Origin: a phage
Strand: one strand, 5' to 3'
Sequence record: OZ335962.1
Length of the DNA stretch: 64,000 bases
The position numbers and the translations under genes are program-made. Every line of letters starts with the position of its first letter. The first letter of the stretch is position 1. The notes under the pieces were generated by a model. It had not been told where the DNA came from. It worked only from the letters and a program-made list of their open reading frames with translations, and did no database searches. Positions 2,571-32,488 of this stretch are shown piece after piece.

Positions 2571-5267
2571 TCAGCCAAACAGGAAGTCTAACGAAGCTTT
2601 TTCCTCATAGTCCATACCTGCCGATTCACACATGCCCGCAAGAGGTTTAACAAACGATTTTTGGAACAAAGTTGAGTAGTCAATCCAAGACAGTACGTCA
2701 GAACGAATTTCTTTTGGAAGTTCTGTGCCTGATGGCCAAGCAATGCACTTGTCACCAAATGGATTTCCTTCACGTAATGGAAGAACCATTACCTTATTTC
2801 CATCCAAAATTGGAGCTACACCTAAACCACTAACAGCTCGACGATAAGTTAGCACACCACGAATATGGAACGGACATTTAAATCCTGGCCAACCTTTATC
2901 ATCATATTTCGCTATATCGTTCGCAGTTTTTACTTCAGCAATAACTTTATAGTCAAGTTGACGATATTCTTTCTCAAAGTTCTTGTAGTATTCTTGGACA
3001 GACTCTTCACCTTCCTGAAGAATACGACGAATACTTTCTTCGAGGGCTTCTTGTACTGCTTTTGGTGTTGAACTCTGCTGAGTTTCCATACCCATGATTT
3101 TTAGATGCGGTTCAGCAAATCGCTTATCTTCCATATCATAAACGTTCAGAGCATAACGTTTTTTCGCTTTCCAAAATCCACCAACACCCTTTGAACCAAG
3201 TGGAGGGCAAGAAATAGCTTCACGGTCCATATGCATCAGATGCTCGCGGTTATTCATATAATCACATAACTCACGATATGCAACATCAATCATAGGTTCC
3301 ATCTTTTTCTTACCAAACTGATTCATGAATTCAACTAAATCATTTTGTTCTTTAAAGCGGTCAAGACCTACTTTTTCAATAACTTTATCTACACAAACAT
3401 ATACCGAATCAGTATCACCTGCTGCGATGAAATCTTCACCATTAGTTCCACACACTTTATTTAGATACTCATTAATTTTACGAGCAATCCATTGAATACC
3501 AACTTGACCGAAAATTGTGATAGCAGTAGCATTTCGCAAATCATAGTAACGGAAATGAATATTACCAAGAGCACCATAAAGACTGTTAATAAGAATTTTA
3601 CGGTTCAGCTGATTTGTGTTAGCAAGCGTAGCTGCTTTTTCACATTCTTCGATCAGACTATTAAGAACAGATTCGGTGTAATTCGATAATTTGTTTAAGA
3701 AATCATCATTGAACTTAACATATCGTTCAACTTCTGGTTTAGTTGAACAAGACCCTGCACCTTTCATAATAATCTTTTTAATAGCTTCGGCATTCATTTC
3801 TTCCGCGAACATTTTCTTTTTCCAATCTTTACGCTGGAAAAATACTTTAGCGATTTCCTTTGGAATGATACCTTCTTGGTGCTTATCATACATCCATCCA
3901 TTCGGAGAGCAAGAATATTCATCACTTGGCTTAGGAGCTGTTCCTGCGATATATTCATGAATTGGATGAACTTTAAACTGCCCACGAATAGTCTCAGGAC
4001 TAATGTTAACCTGACGAATAATGCTAGGATACAGAGACGTCAAGTCAAAACTCATAATGTATCTACGGGCAATCGGTTTAGGTTCAAACACAAATGCACC
4101 TGGAAAACTCTGTTTAACGTGCGAACCTTGTTGAGGAATAACCTTATGTTCACCTTTCAGTGAGTTAAAAATAATAGCATCCCAAGTTTTAATAGGACTC
4201 ATTACACCAGAAAAAGGCATTTTAGCGTAATAAGACATACTTAAAACTAGATCGATAAACCCACGAATTTTATCAATTGCTTGAACTGATTCTACGTCAA
4301 TGATGTTATAACTAATGTATCGTTGATGATTAGTCTCACGAAGTTTATTAATAGGACCATCATATGGTAATTTACCTTTTTTGGTTTCATGTTGAGCAAC
4401 TGATTCCAAAGAGAACGATGGCAAATTAGTAAATGCGAATTTCTTGTACAAATCTAAATAATCAAGAATAGATACGCCATCAATAGAATAAATTTCTTTG
4501 CTACCGTACATATTTTGAATTAGTTTAGATTTTACTCGACCGATTGGAGAGAAGCGTTTCATACTACGTTCGCCTAGAACCATTTTAACACGGTTCATGA
4601 TATACGGAACGTCAAATCCCTCAATATTCCAACCAGTAAAAATAGCGGGTCGTTTCTGTTCCCAGAGATTAATATATTCCATGAGCATATCACGCTCATT
4701 ATCAAATGGCATATAAATTACTCGGTCAAGAATTTCTTGAGGAACTTCATCACCACCTTCGCAGTCAAGCTTAGCAGCTAACTTTGCATCCCATTTTGAT
4801 ACTGAACCGTACATTGAATTCAATAAATCAAAGACGTAAAAACGATCGTCAATTGAATCATAATGAGTGATAGCATCAATTTCATATTCTGCTTTCATTG
4901 GGTCAGGAAATTTATCGCCAGTAACCTCAATGTCACAGTTAGCCACACGAACAAATTTTCGGTCATAAACAATTTCTGAACCATATGTATCACTGATATA
5001 AGCGAGTTTAAAATCGTTCATACCGAGAGCTTCGAGACCGATGTCTTCCATTCGCTTCATCCAGTCTCGCGCATCTTTCATTGATGGAAATTTTTGAGGA
5101 GCGCAATTTTTACCATAAATGTCTTTGTATTTTGACTCTTCCTTACAATGCCTAAACATAGTCGGAAGATATTCTACTTCACGGGTACGTTCCTTTCCAT
5201 TTTCATCAATATAACGCTCAACAATATTATTTCCGACTGTTTCGATAGAGATATAAAATTCTTTCAT
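2571..5267 (-). CDS. 43: DNA polymerase (family B)
   Basis: 898 aa, near-identical to recalled T4 gp43 (MKEFYISIETVGNNIVERY...; exonuclease and polymerase motifs including YGDTDS). Confidence 0.97.
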   Translation of the reverse strand: MKEFYISIETVGNNIVERYIDENGKERTREVEYLPTMFRHCKEESKYKDIYGKNCAPQKFPSMKDARDWMKRMEDIGLEALGMNDFKLAYISDTYGSEIVYDRKFVRVANCDIEVTGDKFPDPMKAEYEIDAITHYDSIDDRFYVFDLLNSMYGSVSKWDAKLAAKLDCEGGDEVPQEILDRVIYMPFDNERDMLMEYINLWEQKRPAIFTGWNIEGFDVPYIMNRVKMVLGERSMKRFSPIGRVKSKLIQNMYGSKEIYSIDGVSILDYLDLYKKFAFTNLPSFSLESVAQHETKKGKLPYDGPINKLRETNHQRYISYNIIDVESVQAIDKIRGFIDLVLSMSYYAKMPFSGVMSPIKTWDAIIFNSLKGEHKVIPQQGSHVKQSFPGAFVFEPKPIARRYIMSFDLTSLYPSIIRQVNISPETIRGQFKVHPIHEYIAGTAPKPSDEYSCSPNGWMYDKHQEGIIPKEIAKVFFQRKDWKKKMFAEEMNAEAIKKIIMKGAGSCSTKPEVERYVKFNDDFLNKLSNYTESVLNSLIEECEKAATLANTNQLNRKILINSLYGALGNIHFRYYDLRNATAITIFGQVGIQWIARKINEYLNKVCGTNGEDFIAAGDTDSVYVCVDKVIEKVGLDRFKEQNDLVEFMNQFGKKKMEPMIDVAYRELCDYMNNREHLMHMDREAISCPPLGSKGVGGFWKAKKRYALNVYDMEDKRFAEPHLKIMGMETQQSSTPKAVQEALEESIRRILQEGEESVQEYYKNFEKEYRQLDYKVIAEVKTANDIAKYDDKGWPGFKCPFHIRGVLTYRRAVSGLGVAPILDGNKVMVLPLREGNPFGDKCIAWPSGTELPKEIRSDVLSWIDYSTLFQKSFVKPLAGMCESAGMDYEEKASLDFLFG

Positions 5268-23395: not shown

Positions 23396-24427
23396 TTACT
23401 TAATTAATTGTAAAGCTTGTTCAAGACGATCTAGGCGATTAACAGATTCTTCCCAAATCCTTTTAGCCTGCTCATAATCTTTCTGCGCTTTATTAGAAAT
23501 TTCTAGAACTTCTTTATAAGCTTTTTCTAGTGCAATAACTTCTGGACGAATTTCTACCGGTTCAGGTGAATCGTCAAGACATTCCATTAGTTCCTCAAGG
23601 GTAGTTTCTTCTTTAGGAGTATTCACAATTTCATCACATTTTTGTTGGTAAATTTCTTTATCAGTCGGTGAGTACGCACACTTTACTTCACGGAGACTAA
23701 CTACAATTTTATATCCTTCCCAACCGCATATATTCTTAAAAGGATAAGTATGAATATTTTCTACTGTTTCCATACAAAGTAATGCGGTCTCTAACTGACG
23801 AGTTATATCGCTAGCAATTGAGAAAAATTTATTAATGTTCTTTTGATTAGCTTCTGGTGTAAAAAATTCATAATTCACAAAAATAGCTGCTTTATTTTTA
23901 TCAAGCTCATATTCTTTTATGATAATCATATCAGAAGCCCAAGGATGGATTTGACGATAATCACCATAGCATAATTTAGAAGCTGATTTTAGAAGTTGCT
24001 TCTTGAAAAGTCTGAAATTACTAATCCAACGACGAGTAAAAATATTCTCAGGGTCTTCTTTATTATTAAGATGATAAGAATTAACATCACCGAACCAATT
24101 ATATCCTACTACATCTTTAGTTCGTTTAATTTCTTTCCCAAATTTACTAAGAATATCTCTGTTGACTAAGTATGAAAGAAGACGAGAACCTTTAAAGGTT
24201 TCCTTAATATCATCTTTATATTCGCAACTAGAAATTTTATGAACTTCATGAATAAATTTGTCGGAAGAAACAATACTTGCATCAGTATTGTTGAGCCACT
24301 GATTGATAATAGAAAGAACACTATTCTGACTAGACATAGATTTAACTTTATCATCAATAACGCTATTGAATGATTTGATATATTCGTTACGAGTCATATT
24401 AATCTCCTCAGTAGAAAGTAAGAACAT
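23396..24427 (-). CDS. paralog-family protein 2 with C-terminal coiled-coil
   Basis: 343 aa; shares the W..F..F(K/R)KQL...AS(K/R)L block and C-terminal coiled-coil with neighbours. Confidence 0.55.
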   Translation of the reverse strand: MFLLSTEEINMTRNEYIKSFNSVIDDKVKSMSSQNSVLSIINQWLNNTDASIVSSDKFIHEVHKISSCEYKDDIKETFKGSRLLSYLVNRDILSKFGKEIKRTKDVVGYNWFGDVNSYHLNNKEDPENIFTRRWISNFRLFKKQLLKSASKLCYGDYRQIHPWASDMIIIKEYELDKNKAAIFVNYEFFTPEANQKNINKFFSIASDITRQLETALLCMETVENIHTYPFKNICGWEGYKIVVSLREVKCAYSPTDKEIYQQKCDEIVNTPKEETTLEELMECLDDSPEPVEIRPEVIALEKAYKEVLEISNKAQKDYEQAKRIWEESVNRLDRLEQALQLIK

Positions 24428-24454
24428 TATACCACATCCTTGTGGCGAAGTAAA

Positions 24455-25480
24455 CTAGTTTAGTGCATTTAGTGCATTGTTCAGTTTAGAACGTTGCTTC
24501 GTGAGATTTTTGACTTTTTCTTGAGCTTTTTCTAGTATCTTTTCAGCTTCTAACACTTCATTAGTTGCTTTAATGAGTTCATCATCTACTGCCTTGATAG
24601 ACTTCTCAATCGCATCTGCATGCCATTTTTCAACAGGTTTAAGACTCGGATTTTCAACAGGAAGAAAATTCGCTTTATTGAATTTCCATGCATCCTTATT
24701 ACCTGAACTATACATCCAAAATTTAGGATCGTTTGATGAGTAATTGGATAAATTTAAGTTATAGTTATCTTGTACTTCCTGCTTTTTCTCTTGCGGGATT
24801 TCGTCCTTTCTCAAAAAATCATATTTAAATGAAACGATCATATCAAGTTCATACGTTGTTGTATGTTCCCAATTTCGCTCAAAATGAGGTAAAATCTTAG
24901 ACTGAACCGCGGCAACTACATCCATATACTTAAATGCTTCTGTCAACTGTGATTTAAGGCATTCACAAATTGAAAGAGAATTTTTTGTATTAGGTTTAAA
25001 GCTAATTCGTGCAGTTCTGTTATTTTCTTTTAATGGTCTTACTTCCATCTGAAGAGTATAACCATCAAATTTCAGATTCTTTAAGTTAATATCAGAACCT
25101 TTTAATCGACTCGCAATTGATAAAATTTGTTTTAATTGTTTACGGAATAGAGCAATAAATCTCCATTCAATACGATAATGATTTGGATTGAAAAATCCAG
25201 ATGATAAATCGACCTTACTTTGACCAACGCCTTGAACAAATAGAGGATTTTTATAATCAATAGTTTTACAGAAATCGGTGAGCTGCTCACGAGCAGTCAT
25301 TTGTGTAATATACCCCGCTTTACTAAAATGACGTAACCATTCACTGCTATTCATATATTTAAAGTGAATATCACTATTAACTTTATCAGGGTCTAAATTA
25401 TTTTGACACAAAAATGTCATAACATCACGAGTATAGCTGGCATTACGAACCATATCTTCAATTTGAGAACGAGTTTTCAT
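24455..25480 (-). CDS. paralog-family protein 3 with C-terminal coiled-coil
   Basis: 341 aa; conserved block RIEWRFIALFRKQLKQILSIASRL and C-terminal coiled-coil. Confidence 0.55.
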   Translation of the reverse strand: MKTRSQIEDMVRNASYTRDVMTFLCQNNLDPDKVNSDIHFKYMNSSEWLRHFSKAGYITQMTAREQLTDFCKTIDYKNPLFVQGVGQSKVDLSSGFFNPNHYRIEWRFIALFRKQLKQILSIASRLKGSDINLKNLKFDGYTLQMEVRPLKENNRTARISFKPNTKNSLSICECLKSQLTEAFKYMDVVAAVQSKILPHFERNWEHTTTYELDMIVSFKYDFLRKDEIPQEKKQEVQDNYNLNLSNYSSNDPKFWMYSSGNKDAWKFNKANFLPVENPSLKPVEKWHADAIEKSIKAVDDELIKATNEVLEAEKILEKAQEKVKNLTKQRSKLNNALNALN

Positions 25481-25488
25481 GGTGTTCC

Positions 25489-26400
25489 TTAAGATTTAAG
25501 TAAATCAACAATTTTAATTAACTTTTCACGCTCAGATTTAGCTTTACTACTCAGTCCAGATAGTCTGAAAATTTCATCATCATATTGTTGAATGGAAATA
25601 TTCAGCTCTTCAATCTGTTTATTAAAATAATCAATTTGTTCAGAATGTTTTTCGTTACTACGAACTGGTACAGGTTTCGTAGGCAATGTAGTTGAACTGG
25701 ATTCATCCGGGCGATAAATTAAAATACAACTTGAACCAATAGGGCATTTTGCACCAGATGAATATTCTAATGTTCCAGCTTCTTTTAAAACTTCAAAAGC
25801 TAAACAGAGATGATGCCCCATATTAACATAATCTGTGGAGCGAGCTCTGATGTAATAATCATCGCCACGAATACTAAATTTAAAGCATTTAAGGTCTTCC
25901 GTATTATTGGTCTTAAAAATCATTTGTTTATCTAGACCTTTAGCTAATCGAGCGCCTAATGCTAATAATCGTCGTTGATTTTCCCACAAATCCACAATCA
26001 TTTGATCGAATGATAATTTCGGCATTAGTCGACCATAAAGGTCATATCCTTTATTATAATTACGAAGGATTTCACTCGCGTTAATACGAGACAATGCTCC
26101 AATTTTATTAAGAGCTTTCATAATGCGATTAGATAAACTCATTCCAGACCCATTTGTTCGCTGTAAATGTTTTTCTAATCCAAATCCAATATCAACTTTA
26201 AACTTATCTAAAATTTCTGCATGAACATCTCTGTCGATAACATTCAAATCCAAAGTTGGGTTAAATCTATGAAAAAATTTATCTGGCTCTGCACTGCGAA
26301 ATACAGTCCATTCATTCATCATTTTTTTATTAACTAAAGATTTAATTACTGCATTGACATTATTAATTACTACTGACATATTTTCCTCACTCAATTTCAA
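25489..26400 (-). CDS. paralog-family protein 4 with C-terminal coiled-coil
   Basis: 303 aa; block LWENQRRLLALGARLAKGL and C-terminal coiled-coil. Confidence 0.5.
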   Translation of the reverse strand: MKLSEENMSVVINNVNAVIKSLVNKKMMNEWTVFRSAEPDKFFHRFNPTLDLNVIDRDVHAEILDKFKVDIGFGLEKHLQRTNGSGMSLSNRIMKALNKIGALSRINASEILRNYNKGYDLYGRLMPKLSFDQMIVDLWENQRRLLALGARLAKGLDKQMIFKTNNTEDLKCFKFSIRGDDYYIRARSTDYVNMGHHLCLAFEVLKEAGTLEYSSGAKCPIGSSCILIYRPDESSSTTLPTKPVPVRSNEKHSEQIDYFNKQIEELNISIQQYDDEIFRLSGLSSKAKSEREKLIKIVDLLKS

Positions 26401-26794
26401 TTTTACTAAATATACAGAATAAGATGGAACAGACTATATAAGCACCACACACAGATTGAACTAATACCATTCCAAAGAACCAAACAATATTATCAAACAA
26501 TGTCTGTTTTACGTCGAAAGGACGTAAACTTACAGTAATATTATCACCTTTTTCTATTGAAGAATACATCTCTGGGGAAATATATTCACTAAATCTATAA
26601 CCGTCTTTGAGTTCATATACGGCAATAAACGATAAACTAGACCCTTTTCCTTGCGTTCCTGTAATGGTATTAACTACAGTAACATCATAATCTTTATAAT
26701 GCATATAATCATTAATTGCGTAATAACCATATGCAATTACTACACATAAACAACATATCAATAAATTCAATCTTTTAATTATCAACTGTTTCAT
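26387..26794 (-). CDS. hypothetical membrane protein
   Basis: 135 aa, N- and C-terminal transmembrane helices. Confidence 0.5.
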   Translation of the reverse strand: MKQLIIKRLNLLICCLCVVIAYGYYAINDYMHYKDYDVTVVNTITGTQGKGSSLSFIAVYELKDGYRFSEYISPEMYSSIEKGDNITVSLRPFDVKQTLFDNIVWFFGMVLVQSVCGAYIVCSILFCIFSKIEIE

Positions 26795-26849
26795 AATAAT
26801 CTCAATTAAAAGGGCTTAGAACCATTATACCATCCTTGGTATAAAGCGG

Positions 26850-27377
26850 TTATGCGAGTACCGTCTTTAACCGTTCTTCAAACTTCCGAAGAGTATTTTG
26901 GCGTTCAGCTCTTTGCTTTTTGTAAGTTTCAATACGCTCTGAAATGAGAGTGTATCGTTCATTTACTGATTCTTTCATAAAATCAGGAATTTCACGAGAA
27001 GCTTTAATCTCGTCAAATTTATCAATAACAGCTTGCTCTTCAGCAATTAAGTTATCATACATTAAAATATCTTTCTTGATGAACTCAATATCTTCTTGAG
27101 TTACACGAGATAATTTAGATGCTTTATCCTTTTTGTACTGTTCGTTAGTATCACGAGACCAGTGTAATGTACGATTTTTATTCGTATTTTTGTAAATTTC
27201 TACAATACCGATCTCATCAATAATAACGATCCAATTCCAACGGGATTTGTAAATTTGTCCTCCATCAACAGTGATTTCACCTCCGATTGAGATGTCATTA
27301 AAGAACTTGCTTTGTGCCTCAGATTTAAATTTACCATCGTTGTAATTTACCAAGTTGAAAATATCTTTAGCGTTCAT
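26850..27377 (-). CDS. hypothetical protein
   Basis: 175-aa ORF directly downstream of an early-type promoter. Confidence 0.55.
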   Translation of the reverse strand: MNAKDIFNLVNYNDGKFKSEAQSKFFNDISIGGEITVDGGQIYKSRWNWIVIIDEIGIVEIYKNTNKNRTLHWSRDTNEQYKKDKASKLSRVTQEDIEFIKKDILMYDNLIAEEQAVIDKFDEIKASREIPDFMKESVNERYTLISERIETYKKQRAERQNTLRKFEERLKTVLA

Positions 27378-27405
27378 TTTCTGTTCCTCCGTAGTTGATA
27401 GGGTA

Positions 27406-27435
27406 ATAGTACCACAGAGGAACAGTCTTGTAAAC
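27406..27435 (-). promoter_or_regulatory. early-type sigma70 promoter
   Basis: GTTTAC -35, 18 bp, TGGTACTAT; upstream of ORF 26850-27377. Confidence 0.6.
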
Positions 27436-27437
27436 CA

Positions 27438-27752
27438 CTAAAAGAAACTTCTTTCACAATTTTTTCCACTGAACCATGCACTCACTGCTTTCTTAGTCTC
27501 AGGAGCAGTGTTATCCATAAACCATTCAAAGGCAGCCTTTTTATGATTCTGGAGGGCTTCTCGGGCTTTAATCTGCTCACGGTCTATTAACACTAACATA
27601 TGAGCCTTTCTTGTCACCATGGGCTTCTTATGATTTTTTGAATACTCCCAGTCATTTGTCCATCGCATTGTCGTTGCGAACTTAAATACTTCTTCTTTAA
27701 TTTTAGTTTCGTAAATTTCACGAGCCTTTGAGTATAACATCATTACCTCCAT
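27438..27752 (-). CDS. hypothetical protein
   Basis: 104-aa ORF. Confidence 0.45.
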   Translation of the reverse strand: MEVMMLYSKAREIYETKIKEEVFKFATTMRWTNDWEYSKNHKKPMVTRKAHMLVLIDREQIKAREALQNHKKAAFEWFMDNTAPETKKAVSAWFSGKNCERSFF

Positions 27753-27841
27753 TCACCAGTTTAATTCTAGTCATCTTTTTAATGGCAGTCCATATAATCT
27801 ATTTCTGAACTGCCTTTTTGTCATAGAAGTCCTCTTATGAA

Positions 27842-28828
27842 TTATTTCAGAAGAGTAACCTCAGCGATTTCTTCCCAACCGTTTTTGTCGGTCATAATAA
27901 AGTCAGCAAGATAAAGAGCAGTACGCAGTGAAACATTGCGTAAACGATTAACATTAACTTTCATCCATGATAATGCTTTATAAGTTTCTTCATCAGAAAG
28001 ACCGCGCTTTTGCATCATGTCAGTTGAAAGAATAACATCTTCAACCCTGACCATAATTTCTTCATTAGTATGAACACCCAAATCCAAATAAACTGAGCGG
28101 GACACTAATGCTTGTAAATGTGGAGCAAGTTTAGTACCGCGGTCTAATTCGCGGTCAATGTCAACGTTTGTGATAAAAACAATCGTTCCTTTAAATTCAA
28201 ACTCACGCTCAATGCCTTTTTCTTCTAAGTAAGAAGACGCAGTGCTCCAGCAGACTTTACGGGTCTCTCCAGTGTCCAGAGCGGCTTTTAGAAGATTAAG
28301 AATGTCCATATCAGAGAAAACATCCACATCATCAATCAAAAGGACAGAATTCTCTTCACGATTATTCCAAAGCTGCTCATAAAGACCAATACCAGAGATT
28401 TTACCATTAATGCTTTTATATTCAATGTATCCAATATCATTTGCTTTATTCAAAGCTTTATCTAAAGAATACGTTTTACCAATACCTGCTGCACCAGAGA
28501 TAATCAATGAACGAATATTTCCATTAATAATACCATTCGTCATCATTCCCATAACATTAAATCTTTTATTAATGCGGGTTTTCATATCTTCATACGATTC
28601 TTTAACTTCTTCAACTTTTACACCATCATATGAAATATCTGATTTGTAAACCCAAACACCGCGACGTTTACCGTCAATTTCAACAAAAACTTTACCATCT
28701 CCTTGTGCATCTACCGGAGCATTATCTGGGAACCATTCGCCTAAGAGCTCAAAAGTTCCAGAGATTTCTTTACCGAAGTAGATACCCTTATTGATAGTTA
28801 CAGTTTTCATTTTATTCTCCAATTTCAC
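27842..28828 (-). CDS. AAA+/P-loop ATPase
   Basis: 328 aa; Walker A GAAGIGKT and Walker B VLLIDDVD; own early-type promoter upstream. Confidence 0.65.
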   Translation of the reverse strand: MKLENKMKTVTINKGIYFGKEISGTFELLGEWFPDNAPVDAQGDGKVFVEIDGKRRGVWVYKSDISYDGVKVEEVKESYEDMKTRINKRFNVMGMMTNGIINGNIRSLIISGAAGIGKTYSLDKALNKANDIGYIEYKSINGKISGIGLYEQLWNNREENSVLLIDDVDVFSDMDILNLLKAALDTGETRKVCWSTASSYLEEKGIEREFEFKGTIVFITNVDIDRELDRGTKLAPHLQALVSRSVYLDLGVHTNEEIMVRVEDVILSTDMMQKRGLSDEETYKALSWMKVNVNRLRNVSLRTALYLADFIMTDKNGWEEIAEVTLLK

Positions 28829-28846
28829 ATTTGTTTTGATAGGGTA

Positions 28847-28876
28847 ATAGTATCACACTACTACCCTACTGTAAAC
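28847..28876 (-). promoter_or_regulatory. early-type sigma70 promoter
   Basis: GTTTAC -35, 18 bp, TGATACTAT; upstream of the AAA+ ATPase gene. Confidence 0.55.
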
Positions 28877-28879
28877 AAT

Positions 28880-29143
28880 TTATTTTAATGTTTGCCAAAT
28901 TTTTACTGCTTCGCGACGAGATACTTCTACAGCTCCAAGTTCTACGGCTTTTTGGCGTCGGCGAGCATGTAAGTCATAATGTTTAATGCGTTTATCTTGA
29001 AACCAAGAACGTTTCATTCCTATTGCTTCTGCCATTTTATGAAGCTCTTCAATATCTCCATCAGTGAACATATGACAATTTTTAGTTGGATGACCGCGAA
29101 GTTTCCATCCATGATTCATTAAAACATCTACGTAAACTGTCAT
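28880..29143 (-). CDS. hypothetical protein
   Basis: 87-aa ORF, conserved-looking small domain (VYVDVL..GW..RGHP..CHM). Confidence 0.45.
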   Translation of the reverse strand: MTVYVDVLMNHGWKLRGHPTKNCHMFTDGDIEELHKMAEAIGMKRSWFQDKRIKHYDLHARRRQKAVELGAVEVSRREAVKIWQTLK

Positions 29144-29290
29144 TGATTCTGCTCCAAATATGTTTCTATAATTTTCTGAGCGAGATAAACTGCGTTATCT
29201 TCAGTTGCATCTTCTAAGAAATTTTCAAAATAAGCTGAAATTTCTTCTGTATCAATCAACTTTTTTACTTCAATTAACGTAGTTTTCATT
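29141..29290 (-). CDS. small acidic protein (49 aa)
   Basis: Below track cutoff; ATG 29290 directly downstream of an early-type promoter; translated by eye as MKTTLIEVKKLIDTEEISAYFENFLEDATEDNAVYLAQKIIETYLEQNQ. Confidence 0.4.
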
Positions 29291-29323
29291 TTATTCCCCA
29301 AATCCGTATCAGTTGATAGTTGT

Positions 29324-29353
29324 ATAGTACCATAAAGCTTTATGCTTGTAAAC
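29324..29353 (-). promoter_or_regulatory. early-type sigma70 promoter
   Basis: GTTTAC -35, 18 bp, TGGTACTAT; directly downstream of a terminator hairpin. Confidence 0.6.
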
Positions 29354-29361
29354 CGTTTTGT

Positions 29362-29401
29362 GAAAAAATTTTGAAATAAAAAAGGGAGCCCGAAGGCTCC
29401 C
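29362..29401 (-). terminator. intrinsic terminator downstream of the nucleotidyltransferase gene
   Basis: GGGAGCC-UUCG-GGCUCCC hairpin followed by TTTTTTATTT. Confidence 0.7.
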
Positions 29402-29403
29402 TA

Positions 29404-30417
29404 TCATTTATAATAACTTCGATGGTTTTCAAGATAAATCCTCTCAAGGAAGTCATCCCAGAAACCCATGTCTACTTTTTGCTGCATACCGTTCTTAGAA
29501 GCTTCAATGGAAGCTGCTTCTACTTGATCGACTACATCTTCCAAAAACTCTTGAACAGTTTTAAATGGATGTTTACCCAACTTCACGTCGAGAATAAATG
29601 GAGCATCTTGAAGTGGATAGACTAAGTCACCAGTTTTGTAAATTTCCAATAGTTGGAGTCCACCACGGCAAGCATGACTCAGAGCTTTCCAGTCAATGCC
29701 CTCATTAGCTTCGGCCTTACGAGCGCGTTCGCCGTATTCAGCATCAAGTTTATTCAAAGATTGCTTAAGCTCGATAAGAGAAAGCGTTGTTTGATATTTA
29801 CGACCCAACACGGTGTAGAACGTTTGTGGTCCTGTTTTCTCATGATTATGGAATACCCATTCACAGAATTCGTTCTCTGGAAGACGATGCTTAATATCTT
29901 CAACTTTAGTTCGACGCTGCTTAATGGAACCGTCTTCTTGGTAATCAACCCATTGCTCAGGGATTTGATTAACTACTTTCAATACATCACGTAATGCGGC
30001 CAAACGAGAACCCTTGACACCATATTTAGAAGCTTGCTTGCGAACATATCCTAAATAGGATTTCATGTTAGTCGTATAAAAACGAGAACGATTGTCTTGA
30101 ATAAACTTCCATACATCAGGCAAATCAGATTTAACTACCAGTTCAGGTGGAGTATGGAGCATATCCAATGCTACAGTTTCACCATCTGCTGCTAATTTAA
30201 AGAAATACTTAAGACTGTATAGTTCATGGTCAATATCATCTTTAGTGTTTTTAGATGATGTGTTGTTAGTGTTTTTACTCATATGCTCTTTAACATTTCC
30301 GATAAGAATATCACGAGCAGGAGGAACAAAGATTTCTTTAAAATCTACATCAGATTCTGGAGTAGAAGTTCCATAAAGATGACTACCAAAATAGCTTTTC
30401 ATTACTGTTTTCATCAT
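29404..30417 (-). CDS. putative nucleotidyltransferase (Pol-beta superfamily-like)
   Basis: 337 aa; N-terminal GSHLYGTSTPESDVDF resembles the GS...DxD nucleotidyltransferase motif; terminator hairpin downstream. Confidence 0.45.
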   Translation of the reverse strand: MMKTVMKSYFGSHLYGTSTPESDVDFKEIFVPPARDILIGNVKEHMSKNTNNTSSKNTKDDIDHELYSLKYFFKLAADGETVALDMLHTPPELVVKSDLPDVWKFIQDNRSRFYTTNMKSYLGYVRKQASKYGVKGSRLAALRDVLKVVNQIPEQWVDYQEDGSIKQRRTKVEDIKHRLPENEFCEWVFHNHEKTGPQTFYTVLGRKYQTTLSLIELKQSLNKLDAEYGERARKAEANEGIDWKALSHACRGGLQLLEIYKTGDLVYPLQDAPFILDVKLGKHPFKTVQEFLEDVVDQVEAASIEASKNGMQQKVDMGFWDDFLERIYLENHRSYYK

Positions 30418-30875
30418 TCAGCCTTATATTCAATAACAGGACATACTTTAGCTTTACGCGCTTTTAAAAATTCGACGATAATAGATTTCTTGGGTTGAAT
30501 AGGAGGTAAACCTTTATACGCCCTATCAATATTTTCTACATGTAAAGCATAATCCTTTTTCCATTTATAATCTTTATATTTTTCATGCAGTTGTGCAGGA
30601 ATAACAAATGAACCAATAATAAGTAAAACAAGCAAAATGGCAAGTATAAATGCTGATGGAATAAGAGTCCATAAACTACCAAAAATAAGCCATTTCTGTA
30701 TGATTTCTGCACAGATAATAGTTAGACCTGCGAGTATAGTACATCCGAAAAAAGAAACGAAAAATGCAGGGATAACAATAGACCAAAAATATGCACAAAG
30801 TGTCTTAGGTCGTTTCCATTCGTCGTTAAACATTTTGAATAATTTATAATGCCAAGAGTTTTCATTAATAATCAT
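30414..30875 (-). CDS. hypothetical membrane protein
   Basis: 153 aa with 2-3 predicted transmembrane helices. Confidence 0.5.
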   Translation of the reverse strand: MIINENSWHYKLFKMFNDEWKRPKTLCAYFWSIVIPAFFVSFFGCTILAGLTIICAEIIQKWLIFGSLWTLIPSAFILAILLVLLIIGSFVIPAQLHEKYKDYKWKKDYALHVENIDRAYKGLPPIQPKKSIIVEFLKARKAKVCPVIEYKAE

Positions 30876-30877
30876 AA

Positions 30878-31399
30878 TTATCCTTTCATTGAAGGTGTAA
30901 CAGTTGTTAAATACTTAATCATAGCTTCAGCTTCTGATTTTGATAATGAAATTTCTCCATTATTTTGACGAATAGAAATAAAATCCGGATGACGGTCACC
31001 ACCAGCTTTTAAAACACACATATAAGTATCAGTTTCATCTTCAATATTTGAAATGATTGAAGCAGTTCCACATGAATGTGGTTTTTGATAAACTAATACA
31101 GCTTTTCTTCCACCGTTTGACTGTTCATAAACTTTTAATACATCAAACAAATCACTTCTTTTATCAATAGCTAAGATGTTGTTTTCATCTTCAATGTTAA
31201 ATCCTTCGGATACTTCATAAAGTGTCACCCATAAATCGCCAATATCAATAACAGCGTTCACTTTTCCATGACTTTCAAGAGCATGACAAATTTTCTTGAT
31301 TTCATCATAACTCATTTTAATAATATCATCTCCTTGAATAAGAAAGATGTCATTTTTAAATTCAACACGAATTAAACCGCTTTCACTTGAAATAAACAT
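30878..31399 (-). CDS. hypothetical protein, paralog of the next ORF
   Basis: 173 aa; C-terminal EAEAMIKYLTTVTPSM resembles EAIALKTYLDSVIPTM of the upstream ORF. Confidence 0.5.
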   Translation of the reverse strand: MFISSESGLIRVEFKNDIFLIQGDDIIKMSYDEIKKICHALESHGKVNAVIDIGDLWVTLYEVSEGFNIEDENNILAIDKRSDLFDVLKVYEQSNGGRKAVLVYQKPHSCGTASIISNIEDETDTYMCVLKAGGDRHPDFISIRQNNGEISLSKSEAEAMIKYLTTVTPSMKG

Positions 31400-31405
31400 A
31401 TTTCC

Positions 31406-31963
31406 TCACTTTGAAATCATAGTTGGAATGACAGAATCAAGATAAGTCTTTAGCGCAATAGCTTCGTCTTTGGTAAATGTGACAATATGTGATCGAAAAT
31501 CATCAATTTGACGAATAGTTAAGACATCTCCATCTTCATAACATTTTGATAAATTTAAAACAGTTTCATCATTTTGATTGCAAGCGTTAGTAATAATAGC
31601 ATTGCAATTTTTGAGCCATTTTAAACTATGTTTTCTTTCATTAGAATAATAAAAATATTTAATCTTATCTATAAAACTATCCCAATGGATAACTGATAAA
31701 CACATTGACTCACTTTTAATATTAAATCCTGGGCATGAAGAATAAAAATGAATTTTGTGCTCATCATTGATGCTTACTATTTTATCAGTATAAGGATATT
31801 CAATTTGGGTTAAATGAATGATTTCACTAGGCGTAAAATATAGCATATCGTCTTCTTGTGTCAAACGATACATATTATTTACTTTTTCTATAGCTAATTC
31901 ACCAAAAAGCGGACTAACTTCTAATACTAATCGTTTCATATTGATTCTCTTCGACTCACTCAC
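31406..31963 (-). CDS. hypothetical protein, paralog of the previous ORF
   Basis: 185 aa; shared C-terminal motif with ORF 30878-31399. Confidence 0.5.
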   Translation of the reverse strand: MSESKRINMKRLVLEVSPLFGELAIEKVNNMYRLTQEDDMLYFTPSEIIHLTQIEYPYTDKIVSINDEHKIHFYSSCPGFNIKSESMCLSVIHWDSFIDKIKYFYYSNERKHSLKWLKNCNAIITNACNQNDETVLNLSKCYEDGDVLTIRQIDDFRSHIVTFTKDEAIALKTYLDSVIPTMISK

Positions 31964-32100
31964 AATTACATACTCCTTTGAATAATATCAATAATGTTGT
32001 TCACCAGATTATAAGTAAACATTGGATAATTATATTGAATCATCACATACACAACAAACAAAACTTTCATTCTCTTCTCCTTGGCAGTTGACAAGATTAC

Positions 32101-32119
32101 TATATCATAACCTTGCCAA
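32101..32119 (-). promoter_or_regulatory. early-type sigma70 promoter
   Basis: GTTTAC -35 and TATAGT -10 in a 330-bp intergenic region. Confidence 0.4.
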
Positions 32120-32293
32120 CTTGTAAACCATTAAATGACGTTTTCAATAAAATTCTGAAGCTTTGTGTGAGCATCAACCATGATTTTCATTTCTTCCTTT
32201 GCGAAAGCTGTACCTCTTTCCCTAGCAGAATACTCATAGTCAGAAACTGCGTTAGCATATTCTTCAATTAGCTTCATTAAAAACATCTGCTTT

Positions 32294-32488
32294 TCAGTTT
32301 TCATTATTCCACCTAATCATTTCAAGATATTGAACTAACTTAGCTTTGGATTTATCCAAATCCTTTTTAGCTGCTTCTATACCATCGTATGAGTATCCTT
32401 CACAATGCTCAACTGCTAATTGATATGAATCTATTTCAACATCACGTGCTAATTTAATAATTTTTTCAAACTGTTCACGTGTTAGCAT
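32294..32488 (-). CDS. hypothetical protein
   Basis: 64-aa ORF. Confidence 0.4.
   Translation of the reverse strand: MLTREQFEKIIKLARDVEIDSYQLAVEHCEGYSYDGIEAAKKDLDKSKAKLVQYLEMIRWNNEN

Follow-up and report, generated by a model that had tools for sequence, protein, structure and literature searches.

A known, dispensable early-gene block of T4-like phages containing a predicted RlaP-family nucleotidyltransferase and a separate AAA+ ATPase

The phage DNA analyzed here (OZ335962.1; a stretch of 64,000 nucleotides, hereafter the window) contains a block of ten minus-strand open reading frames, all of which are present at the coordinates given by the first-pass annotation (Table 1). The block runs in the order nrdC.7, nrdC.8, nrdC.9, nrdC.10, a cassette comprising a 49-aa ORF and a DUF4031 gene, nrdC.11, a pair of genes encoding a 153-aa protein (TM153) and a y05I-family paralog, and finally mobD.1. 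The six proteins common to the window and T4 share 86-99% amino acid identity, and their gene order and strand are the same as in T4 (NC_000866, 52.9-57.8 kb), which by sequence comparison makes the block a direct ortholog of T4 nrdC.7,.8,.9,.10,.11 and mobD.1. At least 80% of the block is found in 412 phage records, from T-even phages. It is an already known, dispensable early-gene block of T4-like phages and not a newly found multi-gene signaling system. Domain predictions made for T4 in 2006, which assigned nrdC.10 to AAA and nrdC.11 to the COG3541 nucleotidyltransferases (PMC1524935), agree with those made for the window. In several cases the longest ORF probably begins too far upstream: CDS lengths in NC_054914.1 place the probable starts of nrdC.9 at 27740 (100 aa), of mobD.1 at ATG 31939 (177 aa) and of the small ORF at ATG 29289 (49 aa), and an alignment of homologs indicates ATG 28810 (322 aa) as the likely start of nrdC.10.

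Table 1. Genes and transcription signals of the block, in window coordinates
Feature	Position	Strand	Evidence
Whole block, ten ORFs	26387-31963	-	
nrdC.7 ortholog, 135 aa, two predicted TM helices	26387..26794	-	92% identity to T4; phrog_2547 E 1e-67
MotA-type middle-promoter-like site, upstream of nrdC.7	26824..26848	-	CGCTTTA-N12-TATAAT, read in the nrdC.8-nrdC.7 gap
nrdC.8 ortholog, 175 aa	26850..27377	-	99% identity to T4; phrog_2274 E 7e-111
Early-type promoter, upstream of nrdC.8	27406..27434	-	TTTACA-17-TACTAT, extended -10 TG; "predicted early promoter" in LR215724.1
nrdC.9 ortholog (DUF7203), 100-104 aa	27438..27752	-	97% identity to T4
nrdC.10 ortholog, predicted AAA+ ATPase, N-terminal beta-rich domain (~residues 1-75)	27842..28828	-	
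Early-type promoter, upstream of nrdC.10	28847..28875	-	Sequence; LR215724.1 annotation
DUF4031 protein, 87 aa	28880..29143	-	Pfam DUF4031 76.7 bits vs cut-off 25.6
49-aa ORF (ATG 29289; 53 aa from TTG)	29140..29301	-	phrog_6888 E 6e-28
Early-type promoter, upstream of 49-aa ORF/DUF4031 cassette	29324..29352	-	Sequence; LR215724.1 annotation
Intrinsic terminator	29383..29402	-	Directly 3' of nrdC.11 stop; LR215724.1 annotation
nrdC.11 ortholog, predicted RlaP-family Pol-beta nucleotidyltransferase, 336-337 aa	29404..30417	-	98% identity to T4 nrdC.11
TM153, 153 aa, two predicted TM helices	30414..30875	-	phrog_944/22816 E ~1e-49
y05I-family protein, 173 aa, MobD.1 paralog	30878..31399	-	T4_y05I_N E 9e-34, T4_y05I_C E 1.5e-23
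mobD.1 ortholog (y05I family), 177-185 aa	31406..31963	-	86% identity to T4 mobD.1

The two proteins proposed at first pass to be membrane proteins, NrdC.7 and TM153, each display two hydrophobic helices in Kyte-Doolittle profiles (residues 4-22 and 110-128 in the former, 33-51 and 74-92 in the latter). No Pfam match was obtained for NrdC.7 and no Pfam family for NrdC.8, and NrdC.9 matches DUF7203 at 54.9 bits (cut-off 27). The proposed paralogy of the last two ORFs is likewise apparent: they share 27% identity (E 7e-10), and each has matches to Pfam T4_y05I_N and T4_y05I_C, with E values of 2e-39 and 4e-21, respectively, for MobD.1.

The window departs from T4 at two positions. Between nrdC.11 and nrdC.10 it adds the cassette, with its own early promoter, in which the stop of the 49-aa ORF overlaps the DUF4031 start; no counterpart of either gene was found in T4. 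This cassette is present whole in 153 phage records and absent from about 385 related ones, and in other phages the 49-aa ORF immediately precedes DUF4031, at two distinct sites in the genome. The second difference is the presence of TM153 and the 173-aa y05I paralog, both absent from T4, where the HNH homing endonuclease gene mobD is found instead; TM153 occupies part of the mobD slot. The two genes occur together in 423 phage records, and at the mobD site the arrangement in the window is commoner than that of T4 among sequenced T-even phages. Both differences are insertion/replacement polymorphisms common among T-even phages.

Three near-identical early-type promoter cassettes (GTTTACA-N17-TGnTACTAT...CTATCAA) reside on the minus strand in intergenic gaps, and the terminator that follows nrdC.11 consists of an 8-bp stem with 6 GC pairs capped by a UUCG loop (GGGAGCC-UUCG-GGCUCCC) and followed by T6. 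At homologous positions, the depositors of the Yersinia phage fPS-65 independently annotated the same three early promoters along with the terminator and a middle promoter; the last of these, a "predicted middle promoter" in LR215724.1, corresponds to the MotA-type site upstream of nrdC.7, a putative promoter. The three early promoters, the strong terminator and the transcriptional modularity described at first pass are therefore borne out by the sequence and by the fPS-65 annotation.

NrdC.10 carries the Walker A and B motifs previously reported (GAAGIGKT and VLLIDDVD), and these are invariant in an alignment of homologs. Scores of the window protein against the Pfam AAA families all fall below the cut-offs. 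Its predicted model is confident, and profile, structure and conservation tests together uphold the assignment as a P-loop ATPase. As modeled, NrdC.10 is a genuine AAA+ ATPase whose fold is nearest to the MoxR, NtrC and MCM types. A conserved partner is lacking: no neighbor is common to more than 5 of 27 distant loci, antisense ORFs overlapping nrdC.10 itself excepted. Its identity to MoxR-type and related pre-sensor-1-insert proteins (NorQ, CbbQ, NtrC/PspF, MCM) is only 10-16%, it differs from them in having its own N-terminal beta-domain, and the VWA-domain partner typical of MoxR is not nearby.

The GS...DxD motif noted in NrdC.11 is present and reads FGSHLYGTSTPESDVDF. RlaP (PF10127) is the sole Pfam family above its cut-off (43.7 bits vs 23), with the match confined to residues 7-135, the N-terminal nucleotidyltransferase (NTase) core. 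In alignments that include canonical bacterial RlaPs, G11, D23, D25 and D63 do not vary and S12 varies very little, and the catalytic residues are invariant across 28 NrdC.11 sequences with identity down to 47%. The AF2 model (pLDDT 86.9) displays an NTase domain and, after it, a helical domain, an architecture shared with RlaPs such as those of Pseudomonas fluorescens and P. aeruginosa, and its G-S...DxD...D residues align with those of canonical RlaPs. Canonical RlaP (267 aa) is only 11-18% identical to NrdC.11, which exceeds it by about 70 aa, with a beta-rich stretch inserted at about residues 155-209 and a longer helical region at the C-terminus. The best matches among solved structures are KNTase/MNT-class enzymes (3c18, kanamycin NTase, HalB and MNT). 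These matches are weak (E 3e-3 to 0.3, TM about 0.25), reflecting a minimal NTase core in common. Profile, structure and conservation tests thus sustain the nucleotidyltransferase assignment, and NrdC.11 is classified from its sequence as an RlaP-family Pol-beta nucleotidyltransferase with intact catalytic motifs. Identification as a CD-NTase was considered and rejected: the protein is RlaP/KNTase-like, sharing with CD-NTases only the very general Pol-beta nucleotidyltransferase fold; there was no PADLOC match; and no cGAS or CD-NTase structure was present among the 50 fold matches listed.

It had been proposed that the ATPase, the nucleotidyltransferase and the membrane proteins constitute one nucleotide-signaling or anti-defense system, comparable to CBASS, Thoeris or the inhibitors of either. 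The genes are adjacent, enterobacterial and Acinetobacter T4-like phages retain their order, the neighboring T4 region has proven anti-defense genes, and the TM153 stop overlaps the nrdC.11 start, such that the two are predicted to be translationally coupled. Against this, nrdC.11 and nrdC.10 are parted by the strong terminator and each has a separate promoter; NrdC.10 is missing within 10 kb in 40 of 78 viral loci with NrdC.11, and NrdC.11 in 27 of 36 loci with NrdC.10, although these counts, from scans of +/-10 kb, are not independent events because many of the loci stem from phages that are close relatives. Two phage contigs contain both genes at least 40 kb apart. TM153 is upstream of NrdC.11 in 46 of the 78 viral loci but is absent from T4 itself, and the bacterial NrdC.11-type loci lack NrdC.10-like as well as TM153-like neighbors (77 loci surveyed, one nrdC.10 match set aside). 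That single match is assumed to sit in a phage-like contig (L118-L120). Neither CD-NTase/SMODS proteins nor known phage inhibitors of such signaling (Acb1, Acb2, Tad1) gave a PADLOC or Pfam match in the block, PADLOC returned nothing at all for it, and an effector-like partner is not conserved. Linkage of the ATPase gene to the nucleotidyltransferase gene is not conserved either, nothing in the block resembles CD-NTase signaling, and a single system of this kind is very unlikely. The first-pass annotation had itself counted orthology to T4 nrdC.x genes without catalytic motifs as evidence against its reading; the orthology was found, whereas the motifs proved intact. Within a narrower clade, cooperation may nonetheless occur, given the coupling of TM153 and a kept gene order: nrdC.11 precedes nrdC.10 in T4, in fFiEco06 and in all nine viral loci of the NrdC.10 scan whose NrdC.10 shares 66% or more identity with that of the window, and among these TM153 is missing solely in T4.

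Full-length NrdC.11-type genes were surveyed at 77 loci on genome contigs, which are mostly bacterial (L118-L120 resemble T4-type phage contigs). Canonical RlaP lies immediately downstream of the NrdC.11-type gene in 35-42 of these loci, Pnkp or an RtcB ligase within 6 kb in 16, Hen1 in seven and Ro60 in five. Full-length bacterial relatives reside in Hen1-Pnkp or RtcB-Ro60 RNA-repair operons; in Asticcacaulis solisilvae, Hen1, Pnkp, the NrdC.11-type gene and RlaP occur in that order with overlapping stops and starts. Two Pseudomonas RlaPs have been found to add 1-2 NMP onto RNA 3'-OH ends, restoring the function of over-damaged tRNA, and T4 NrdC.11 has already been assigned as an RlaP to PF10127 cluster 5 (bioRxiv 10.64898/2025.12.29.696909). 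The most likely role of NrdC.11 is to act alongside T4 tRNA repair by adding nucleotides where RNA 3' ends are damaged, as suggested by family membership and by the gene neighborhoods of bacterial relatives with only 26-40% identity. Unlike the RNA ligase-associated RlaPs, phage NrdC.11, whose activity is predicted, adjoins no ligase, neither pseT nor rnlA being next to it. Substrate specificity may also differ, in view of the restricted RlaP match, the beta-rich insertion and the longer C-terminus.

Conceivably, NrdC.11 could instead nucleotidylate a protein or small molecule, or make an oligonucleotide, and so inactivate or mimic a host defense component without any part in RNA repair. Such an activity would resemble that of kanamycin nucleotidyltransferase, MntA-type AMPylases or Hailong HalB. 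The best solved-structure matches are 3c18, kanamycin NTase, HalB and MNT, there is a faint NCBIfam match to MntA (E 0.06), and the RlaP profile spans the NTase core only. This seems rather unlikely, since the fold matches are weak, RlaP alone exceeds its Pfam cut-off, the bacterial relatives lie in Pnkp/Hen1 and RtcB/Ro60 operons beside canonical RlaP, and characterized RlaPs act, among E. coli macromolecules, on RNA only. A role in phage NAD+ or nucleotide salvage is more improbable still. In distant T4-like loci, an NMNAT-Nudix gene is found ~2.9 kb upstream of nrdC.11 (in 13 of 34 loci) and a NAMPT gene ~3.5 kb downstream (in eight loci), and the T4 neighbor nrdC.5 counters the NADase Dsr1 (PMC9391042). 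However, the NAD genes are non-adjacent, occur in a minority of loci and are absent from the window block, bacterial NrdC.11 relatives associate with RNA ligases rather than NAD enzymes, and a ProQ_C-like, RNA-chaperone-type protein is encoded immediately upstream of nrdC.11 in eight loci.

Of two genome-wide screens in T4, transposon sequencing scored all six genes as "Non-essential" and CRISPRi-ART scored them as "Not Fit"; the nrdC.11-mobD.3 segment of T4 can be deleted (PMC9825161). Together with the splitting of nrdC.11 into two CDS in fPS-65 and the two insertion/replacement hot spots, this could be taken to mean that the block is inert filler, made up of decaying or selfish ORFs kept by hitch-hiking. 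Such an explanation is scarcely credible given that, across phages of Escherichia, Serratia, Acinetobacter, Aeromonas and Vibrio, identity stays at 55-79% for NrdC.10 and at 47-88% for NrdC.11 and the catalytic residues are invariant, a pattern that indicates purifying selection, and that neighboring "dispensable" genes turned out to be conditional anti-defense factors. Indeed, the block sits in the T4 region that holds the counter-defense genes nrdC.5 and nrdC.1, the latter of which counters Septu (bioRxiv 10.1101/2025.11.20.689424). An anti-defense role is accordingly plausible for individual genes of the block, and this part of the original proposal stands, whereas its extension to one system is unsupported.

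Overall, it seems reasonably probable that the block consists of separate dispensable genes, among which NrdC.11 acts in RNA 3'-end addition and NrdC.10 is an independent AAA+ ATPase. Expressed early or middle from at least four separate promoters, these individually dispensable genes would form no single machine. NrdC.10 would be a stand-alone member of the pre-sensor-1-insert group, most likely ring-forming, that uses ATP to remodel a protein or nucleic-acid target independently of NrdC.11. NrdC.11 would extend damaged RNA at its 3'-OH by one or a few nucleotides, after which T4 Pnkp and RNA ligase could reseal tRNAs shortened by a host anticodon nuclease; the proposed triggers are RloC-type "smart" ribotoxins, anticodon nucleases that remove nucleotides from tRNAs. 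If this is true, NrdC.11 would be a counter-defense enzyme that cooperates with genes elsewhere in the phage genome.

The block is ordinary T-even gene content that has been sequenced hundreds of times and is already known. Matches to its 5.6 kb occur in 775 phage records; in 412 of these, coverage reaches 80% or more at 95-99% identity, and the 412 come almost entirely from Tequatrovirus-type phages that infect Escherichia, Shigella and Yersinia. NC_000866 and NC_054914 carry annotations that agree in identifying the ORFs as nrdC.7, nrdC.8, nrdC.9, nrdC.10, nrdC.11 and mobD.1, which occur in T4 order and orientation between nrdC.6 and mobD.2, with rI and tk downstream of the block. All ten minus-strand ORFs, together with the motifs ascribed to them in the first-pass annotation, are found in the sequence, as are two strongly hydrophobic helices in each of the two proposed membrane proteins. 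The first-pass description is thereby confirmed, save that some start codons probably lie a few codons too far upstream; for nrdC.9, nrdC.10 and mobD.1 the alignments of homologues and curated records favor a later ATG (see table). The two ORFs described as paralogous are indeed 27% identical (E 7e-10), and both contain the T4_y05I_N and T4_y05I_C Pfam domains (PF24449 and PF24448) above cut-off, with E values from 1e-21 to 2e-39; Pfam labels this family "Putative transcription factor". For the upstream genes nrdC.4, nrdC.5 and nrdC.6, which had been read as a paralog array, BLASTP detects no similarity between any two of the three proteins at E < 0.01, so that any paralogy, judged from sequence, would have to lie at a remote level.

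Features of the block (minus strand) and its surroundings, with start codons and protein identity to T4 by tblastn against the T4 region
Feature	Coordinates	Longest-ORF start (probably not real)	Likelier start	Identity to T4 (%)
nrdC.4/nrdC.5/nrdC.6	23396-26400
nrdC.7				92
MotA-box-like element, nrdC.8-nrdC.7 gap	26824-26848
nrdC.8				99
nrdC.9		ATG 27752	ATG 27740	97
nrdC.10-nrdC.9 spacer with hairpin	27753-27841
nrdC.10 (AAA+ ATPase)	27842-28828	GTG 28828	ATG 28810	99
49-aa ORF and DUF4031 pair	28880-29301
Predicted terminator	29402-29383
nrdC.11 (nucleotidyltransferase)	29404-30417			98
TM153	30414-30875
y05I paralogue	30878-31399
mobD.1 (y05I family)	31406-31963	GTG 31963	ATG 31939	86

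Within the block, the window differs from T4 at two sites. In T4, the slot between nrdC.11 and mobD.1 is occupied by mobD, catalogued there as a free-standing HNH endonuclease (PMC2988022), a homing enzyme, whereas in the window it contains TM153, a 153-aa predicted two-helix membrane protein, and the second y05I paralogue, which is the commoner arrangement (423 records). Between nrdC.11 and nrdC.10, T4 has a short spacer alone, whereas the window contains two small genes, a 49-aa ORF and one for an 87-aa DUF4031 protein (PF13223, 76.7 bits against a Pfam cut-off of 25.6). The stop of the first overlaps the start of the second, and the pair is served by its own early promoter. The full cassette is present in 153 phage records, and approximately 385 related records match the terminator/promoter part only. 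In T4-like phages the pair occupies two positions, either the nrdC.11-nrdC.10 gap or a site downstream of nrdC.9; at the loci L005, L051, L053, L055 and L056 it lies about 4-5 kb downstream of NrdC.11. Given this variable placement, it behaves as a mobile two-gene cassette. Most of the 3193 representative clusters of the DUF4031 family are stand-alone proteins with lengths of 85-130 aa; among ten long members, nine have no second Pfam domain and one carries DUF1643.

The transcription signals proposed for the block are borne out by closer inspection. The three early-type promoters are near-identical cassettes (GTTTACA-N17-TGnTACTAT followed by CTATCAA) located in three of the five sizeable intergenic gaps, and the strong terminator, with a UUCG loop and six Ts, lies directly 3′ of the nrdC.11 stop codon. 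The depositors of Yersinia phage fPS-65 (LR215724.1) annotated the same promoters and terminator, as well as a middle promoter before nrdC.7, at homologous places. The terminator and two early promoters are predicted to separate nrdC.11 from nrdC.10, and the block is transcriptionally modular in that nrdC.11 ends in its own terminator while the 49-aa ORF/DUF4031 cassette and nrdC.10 each have their own promoter. Upstream of nrdC.7, a MotA-box-like CGCTTTA, a 12-nt interval and TATAAT suggest a middle promoter for this and the downstream genes. The 89-nt spacer between nrdC.10 and nrdC.9 contains a hairpin (GGCAGT...ACTGCC, 19-nt loop) with neither a T-tract nor a promoter match, which could be an RNA processing or stability element. 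An Rfam scan of positions 26000-32300 returned L20_leader as its sole match (29.8 bits against a threshold of 58.7), which we take as chance.

Much of this region has been described before, and the AAA assignment of nrdC.10 and the nucleotidyltransferase assignment of nrdC.11 were published in 2006 (PMC1524935). The genes from nrdC.11 to mobD.3 were lost spontaneously in a genome-reduced T4 (PMC9825161). In T4 transposon sequencing, nrdC.7 to nrdC.11 and mobD.1 are non-essential (saturation 0.96-1.0), with no change recorded for them in one conditional comparison, and in CRISPRi-ART they are "Not Fit". In fPS-65, nrdC.11 is annotated as two CDS (3578-3823, 246 bp; 3827-4588, 762 bp of that locus), which suggests inactivation by a frameshift or stop and fits dispensability. 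Elsewhere in the same T4 region, nrdC.5 inhibits the Dsr1 defence (PMC9391042) and nrdC.1 counters Septu (bioRxiv 10.1101/2025.11.20.689424). Since these neighbors are conditional anti-defence factors, a counter-defence role is a reasonable idea for the region, gene by gene. Overall, the genes of this known T-even accessory region are non-essential and independent of one another. The functional statements made here about its phage proteins are all inferred.

The ATPase assignment of NrdC.10 is upheld. Walker A (G112-A-A-G-I-G-K118-T119) and Walker B (L-L-I-D166-D167) are invariant in 20 homologues with identities down to 55%, as are N221, R244 and R297/R302. By position alone, N221 (following strand 215-220) is the candidate sensor 1, and R244 and R297/R302 are the candidate arginine finger/sensor 2. 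NrdC.10 itself scores below every Pfam AAA cut-off (best match AAA_14, 23.5 bits against 27), and distant members of its family pass PF00004 (37.8 and 28.9 bits against 21.2). The structural model (pLDDT 89) displays an N-terminal beta domain, then an alpha-beta-alpha ASCE core that is interrupted by an insertion after helix 3 and before strand 4, and finally a helical lid; Foldseek matches it to a broad mix of AAA+ proteins. The NrdC.10 family is a true AAA+ family, and its conservation is striking: proteins from phages of several host genera share 55-79% identity. In viral contigs of 130-376 kb (L027-L037), distant relatives of about 500-545 aa have an extra N-terminal region of approximately 250 aa that lacks a Pfam match and replaces the 75-aa beta domain of T4-like phages.

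The neighborhoods of NrdC.10 do not point to a partner. When neighbors were clustered at 27 distant loci, none recurred at more than five, barring antisense ORFs that overlap the gene; the best cluster (five loci) has members without a Pfam family, and the others include an RNase T-like exonuclease (four loci) and a weak, sub-threshold radical-SAM-like match (four loci). No VWA-domain protein was found among the neighbors scanned at these loci, long homologues contain AAA matches alone rather than informative fusions, and NrdC.10 has no MoxR/AAA_5 Pfam match, its likeness to MoxR being structural only. A phage MoxR ATPase has been reported as an anti-defence gene in another phage (bioRxiv 10.1101/2025.11.20.689424), which for NrdC.10 is a lead only. 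The best available guess is a ring-shaped remodelling ATPase. As a well-conserved orphan phage AAA+ protein, NrdC.10 would be a sensible choice for screens of conditional essentiality on natural hosts.

The nucleotidyltransferase assignment of NrdC.11 can be made more specific. The protein matches RlaP (PF10127) with 43.7 bits against a cut-off of 23 (E 3.5e-11) over residues 7-135 only, and this domain is carried by all NrdC.11 homologues among the matches listed. The Pol-beta signature (hG[GS], DxD and a third carboxylate on the next strand) is present, and across 28 phage sequences with identities down to 47% there is no variation at G11, S12, D23, D25 and D63. In an alignment that includes four canonical bacterial RlaPs, G11, G16, S22, D23, D25 and D63 remain invariant, and S12 nearly so. 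Because D63 falls in a predicted strand (62-68), the catalytic triad is likely D23, D25 and D63; D85, the first candidate for the third carboxylate, was set aside in favor of D63 on the basis of the predicted strands and of the canonical-RlaP alignment. In the AlphaFold (AF2) model (pLDDT 86.9), the nucleotidyltransferase core is followed by a beta-rich insert (155-209) and then by helices (214-336). The published PfRlaP structure has an N-terminal nucleotidyltransferase domain and a C-terminal helical domain, to which, by comparison of domain order, the NrdC.11 model would add the insert.

Fold comparison bears on the proposal that NrdC.11 belongs to a nucleotide-signalling system. Its best matches among solved structures are weak, and they are minimal nucleotidyltransferases with a helical domain, namely 3c18, kanamycin nucleotidyltransferase, Hailong HalB and MNT; the fold matches listed include no cGAS or CD-NTase structure. 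A search of a PDB copy for an RlaP structure by sequence and by fold found none, and single-sequence and profile searches of PDB sequences with NrdC.11, NrdC.10 and DUF4031 gave nothing usable. A CD-NTase/CBASS test likewise returned no cGAS/DncV-like fold or profile: RlaP is the sole Pfam family of NrdC.11, and the listed folds are of the KNTase, MNT and HalB types. NrdC.11 is classed as an RNA-repair-type RlaP and not as a signalling enzyme.

The bacterial relatives of NrdC.11 gave the most informative result. A scan of the GTDB genome collection identified 77 loci, mostly from Alphaproteobacteria, that encode full-length relatives with 26-40% identity over residues 2-328; three of them (L118-L120) look like T4-type phage contigs. 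A canonical 267-aa RlaP (PF10127, E 1e-68) lies immediately downstream at 35-42 of the 77, and Pnkp or the RNA ligase RtcB lies within 6 kb at 16. Hen1 and an HD phosphohydrolase are each found at seven loci, and Ro60/TROVE at five. On a chromosome of Asticcacaulis solisilvae (L188, 2088-7790), the genes for Hen1, Pnkp, an NrdC.11-type nucleotidyltransferase and canonical RlaP follow one another with overlapping stops and starts. Many bacteria have tandem RlaP paralogues, a 327-aa NrdC.11-type protein and then the 267-aa canonical one, often after Hen1-Pnkp or near RtcB-Ro60. The two enzymes may cooperate or may each serve a different end, and in T4-like phages the long type alone is kept. The association with RNA ligases and RNA repair is found for the bacterial full-length relatives and is absent inside the phage block itself. 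In T4, Pnkp (pseT) and RNA ligases (rnlA) are encoded elsewhere in the genome.

A different association appears in distant T4-like viral contigs (L083-L111), where NAD+ salvage genes lie within about 4 kb of the NrdC.11 homologue: NMNAT-Nudix at 13 of 34 loci and NAMPT at eight. A ProQ C-terminal-like protein directly precedes the homologue at eight loci, and a Dcm-type cytosine methylase is encoded downstream. As a main reading of NrdC.11, a link to NAD salvage was rejected, because it is loose and is missing in bacteria.

RNA repair is also the setting in which the family has been studied. According to a 2025 preprint (bioRxiv 10.64898/2025.12.29.696909), the name RlaP reflects the link of the family to RNA ligases, and two RlaPs from Pseudomonas extend an RNA 3′-OH by one or two NMPs and rescue tRNAs from which nucleotides are missing. 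In the preprint, T4 NrdC.11 is listed as an uncharacterised RlaP of cluster 5, and RlaP is proposed as an antidote to "smart" ribotoxins such as RloC. RloC is reported to remove the wobble nucleotide from the tRNA that it attacks (PMC2610378, PMC3458546), and the preprint questions whether tRNA shortened in this way can be repaired and remain active. Taken together, family membership, bacterial operon context and the RlaP/RloC literature make RNA 3′-end nucleotide addition in aid of tRNA repair the most likely function of NrdC.11, with its activity, substrate and trigger read from family and context. NrdC.11 would then supply a missing step, allowing T4 Pnkp and RNA ligase to cope with anticodon nucleases that remove nucleotides rather than merely cleaving the tRNA.

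Whether NrdC.11 performs this role with its neighbors is a separate matter. The first-pass annotation had combined the ATPase, the nucleotidyltransferase and the membrane proteins into a plausible signalling or anti-defence system. The evidence argues instead for independent genes. NrdC.10 is missing within 10 kb of NrdC.11 at 40 of 78 viral loci with an NrdC.11 relative, including close relatives with nrdC.9 directly after nrdC.11, and, among the matches listed, NrdC.11 is missing within 10 kb of NrdC.10 at 27 of 36 viral loci and present at the nine closest only; the loci spanned ±10 kb and many are from closely related phages, so these counts do not represent independent events. In a contig of 183,104 bp the two genes lie 40 kb from each other, and in one of 173,591 bp the distance is about 110 kb, or over 60 kb should the map be circular. 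T4 does without TM153, and no NrdC.10-like or TM153-like neighbor occurs at the bacterial NrdC.11-type loci, the single nrdC.10 and DUF4031 matches among the 77 being assumed to fall in the phage-like contigs L118-L120. A PADLOC search with the ten proteins yielded no match at E <= 1e-3, and PADLOC and NCBIfam gave chance-level matches only. Gene order is of little weight, being conserved only inside a clade that is syntenic across the whole region. TM153 shows translational coupling to nrdC.11 and is encoded upstream of it at 46 of the 78 viral loci, which leaves a small probability of cooperation within that clade. Conceivably, in the T4-like phages of enterobacteria and Acinetobacter, where the order TM153, NrdC.11, NrdC.10 is maintained, the three proteins could work together at the membrane as a machine for RNA repair or counter-defence, a proposal that we regard as very improbable. 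The AAA+ ATPase would in that case deliver or remodel damaged tRNA, or strip off the host nuclease, for the RlaP nucleotidyltransferase, and RNA repair would thereby be elaborated in a way peculiar to phages and absent from every bacterial RlaP operon.

For NrdC.11 as an independent RNA-repair enzyme, the operon contexts of its bacterial relatives strengthen the tRNA-repair idea already raised in the 2025 preprint. The useful product of the analysis is a sharper case that NrdC.11 may extend tRNA repair in T4.
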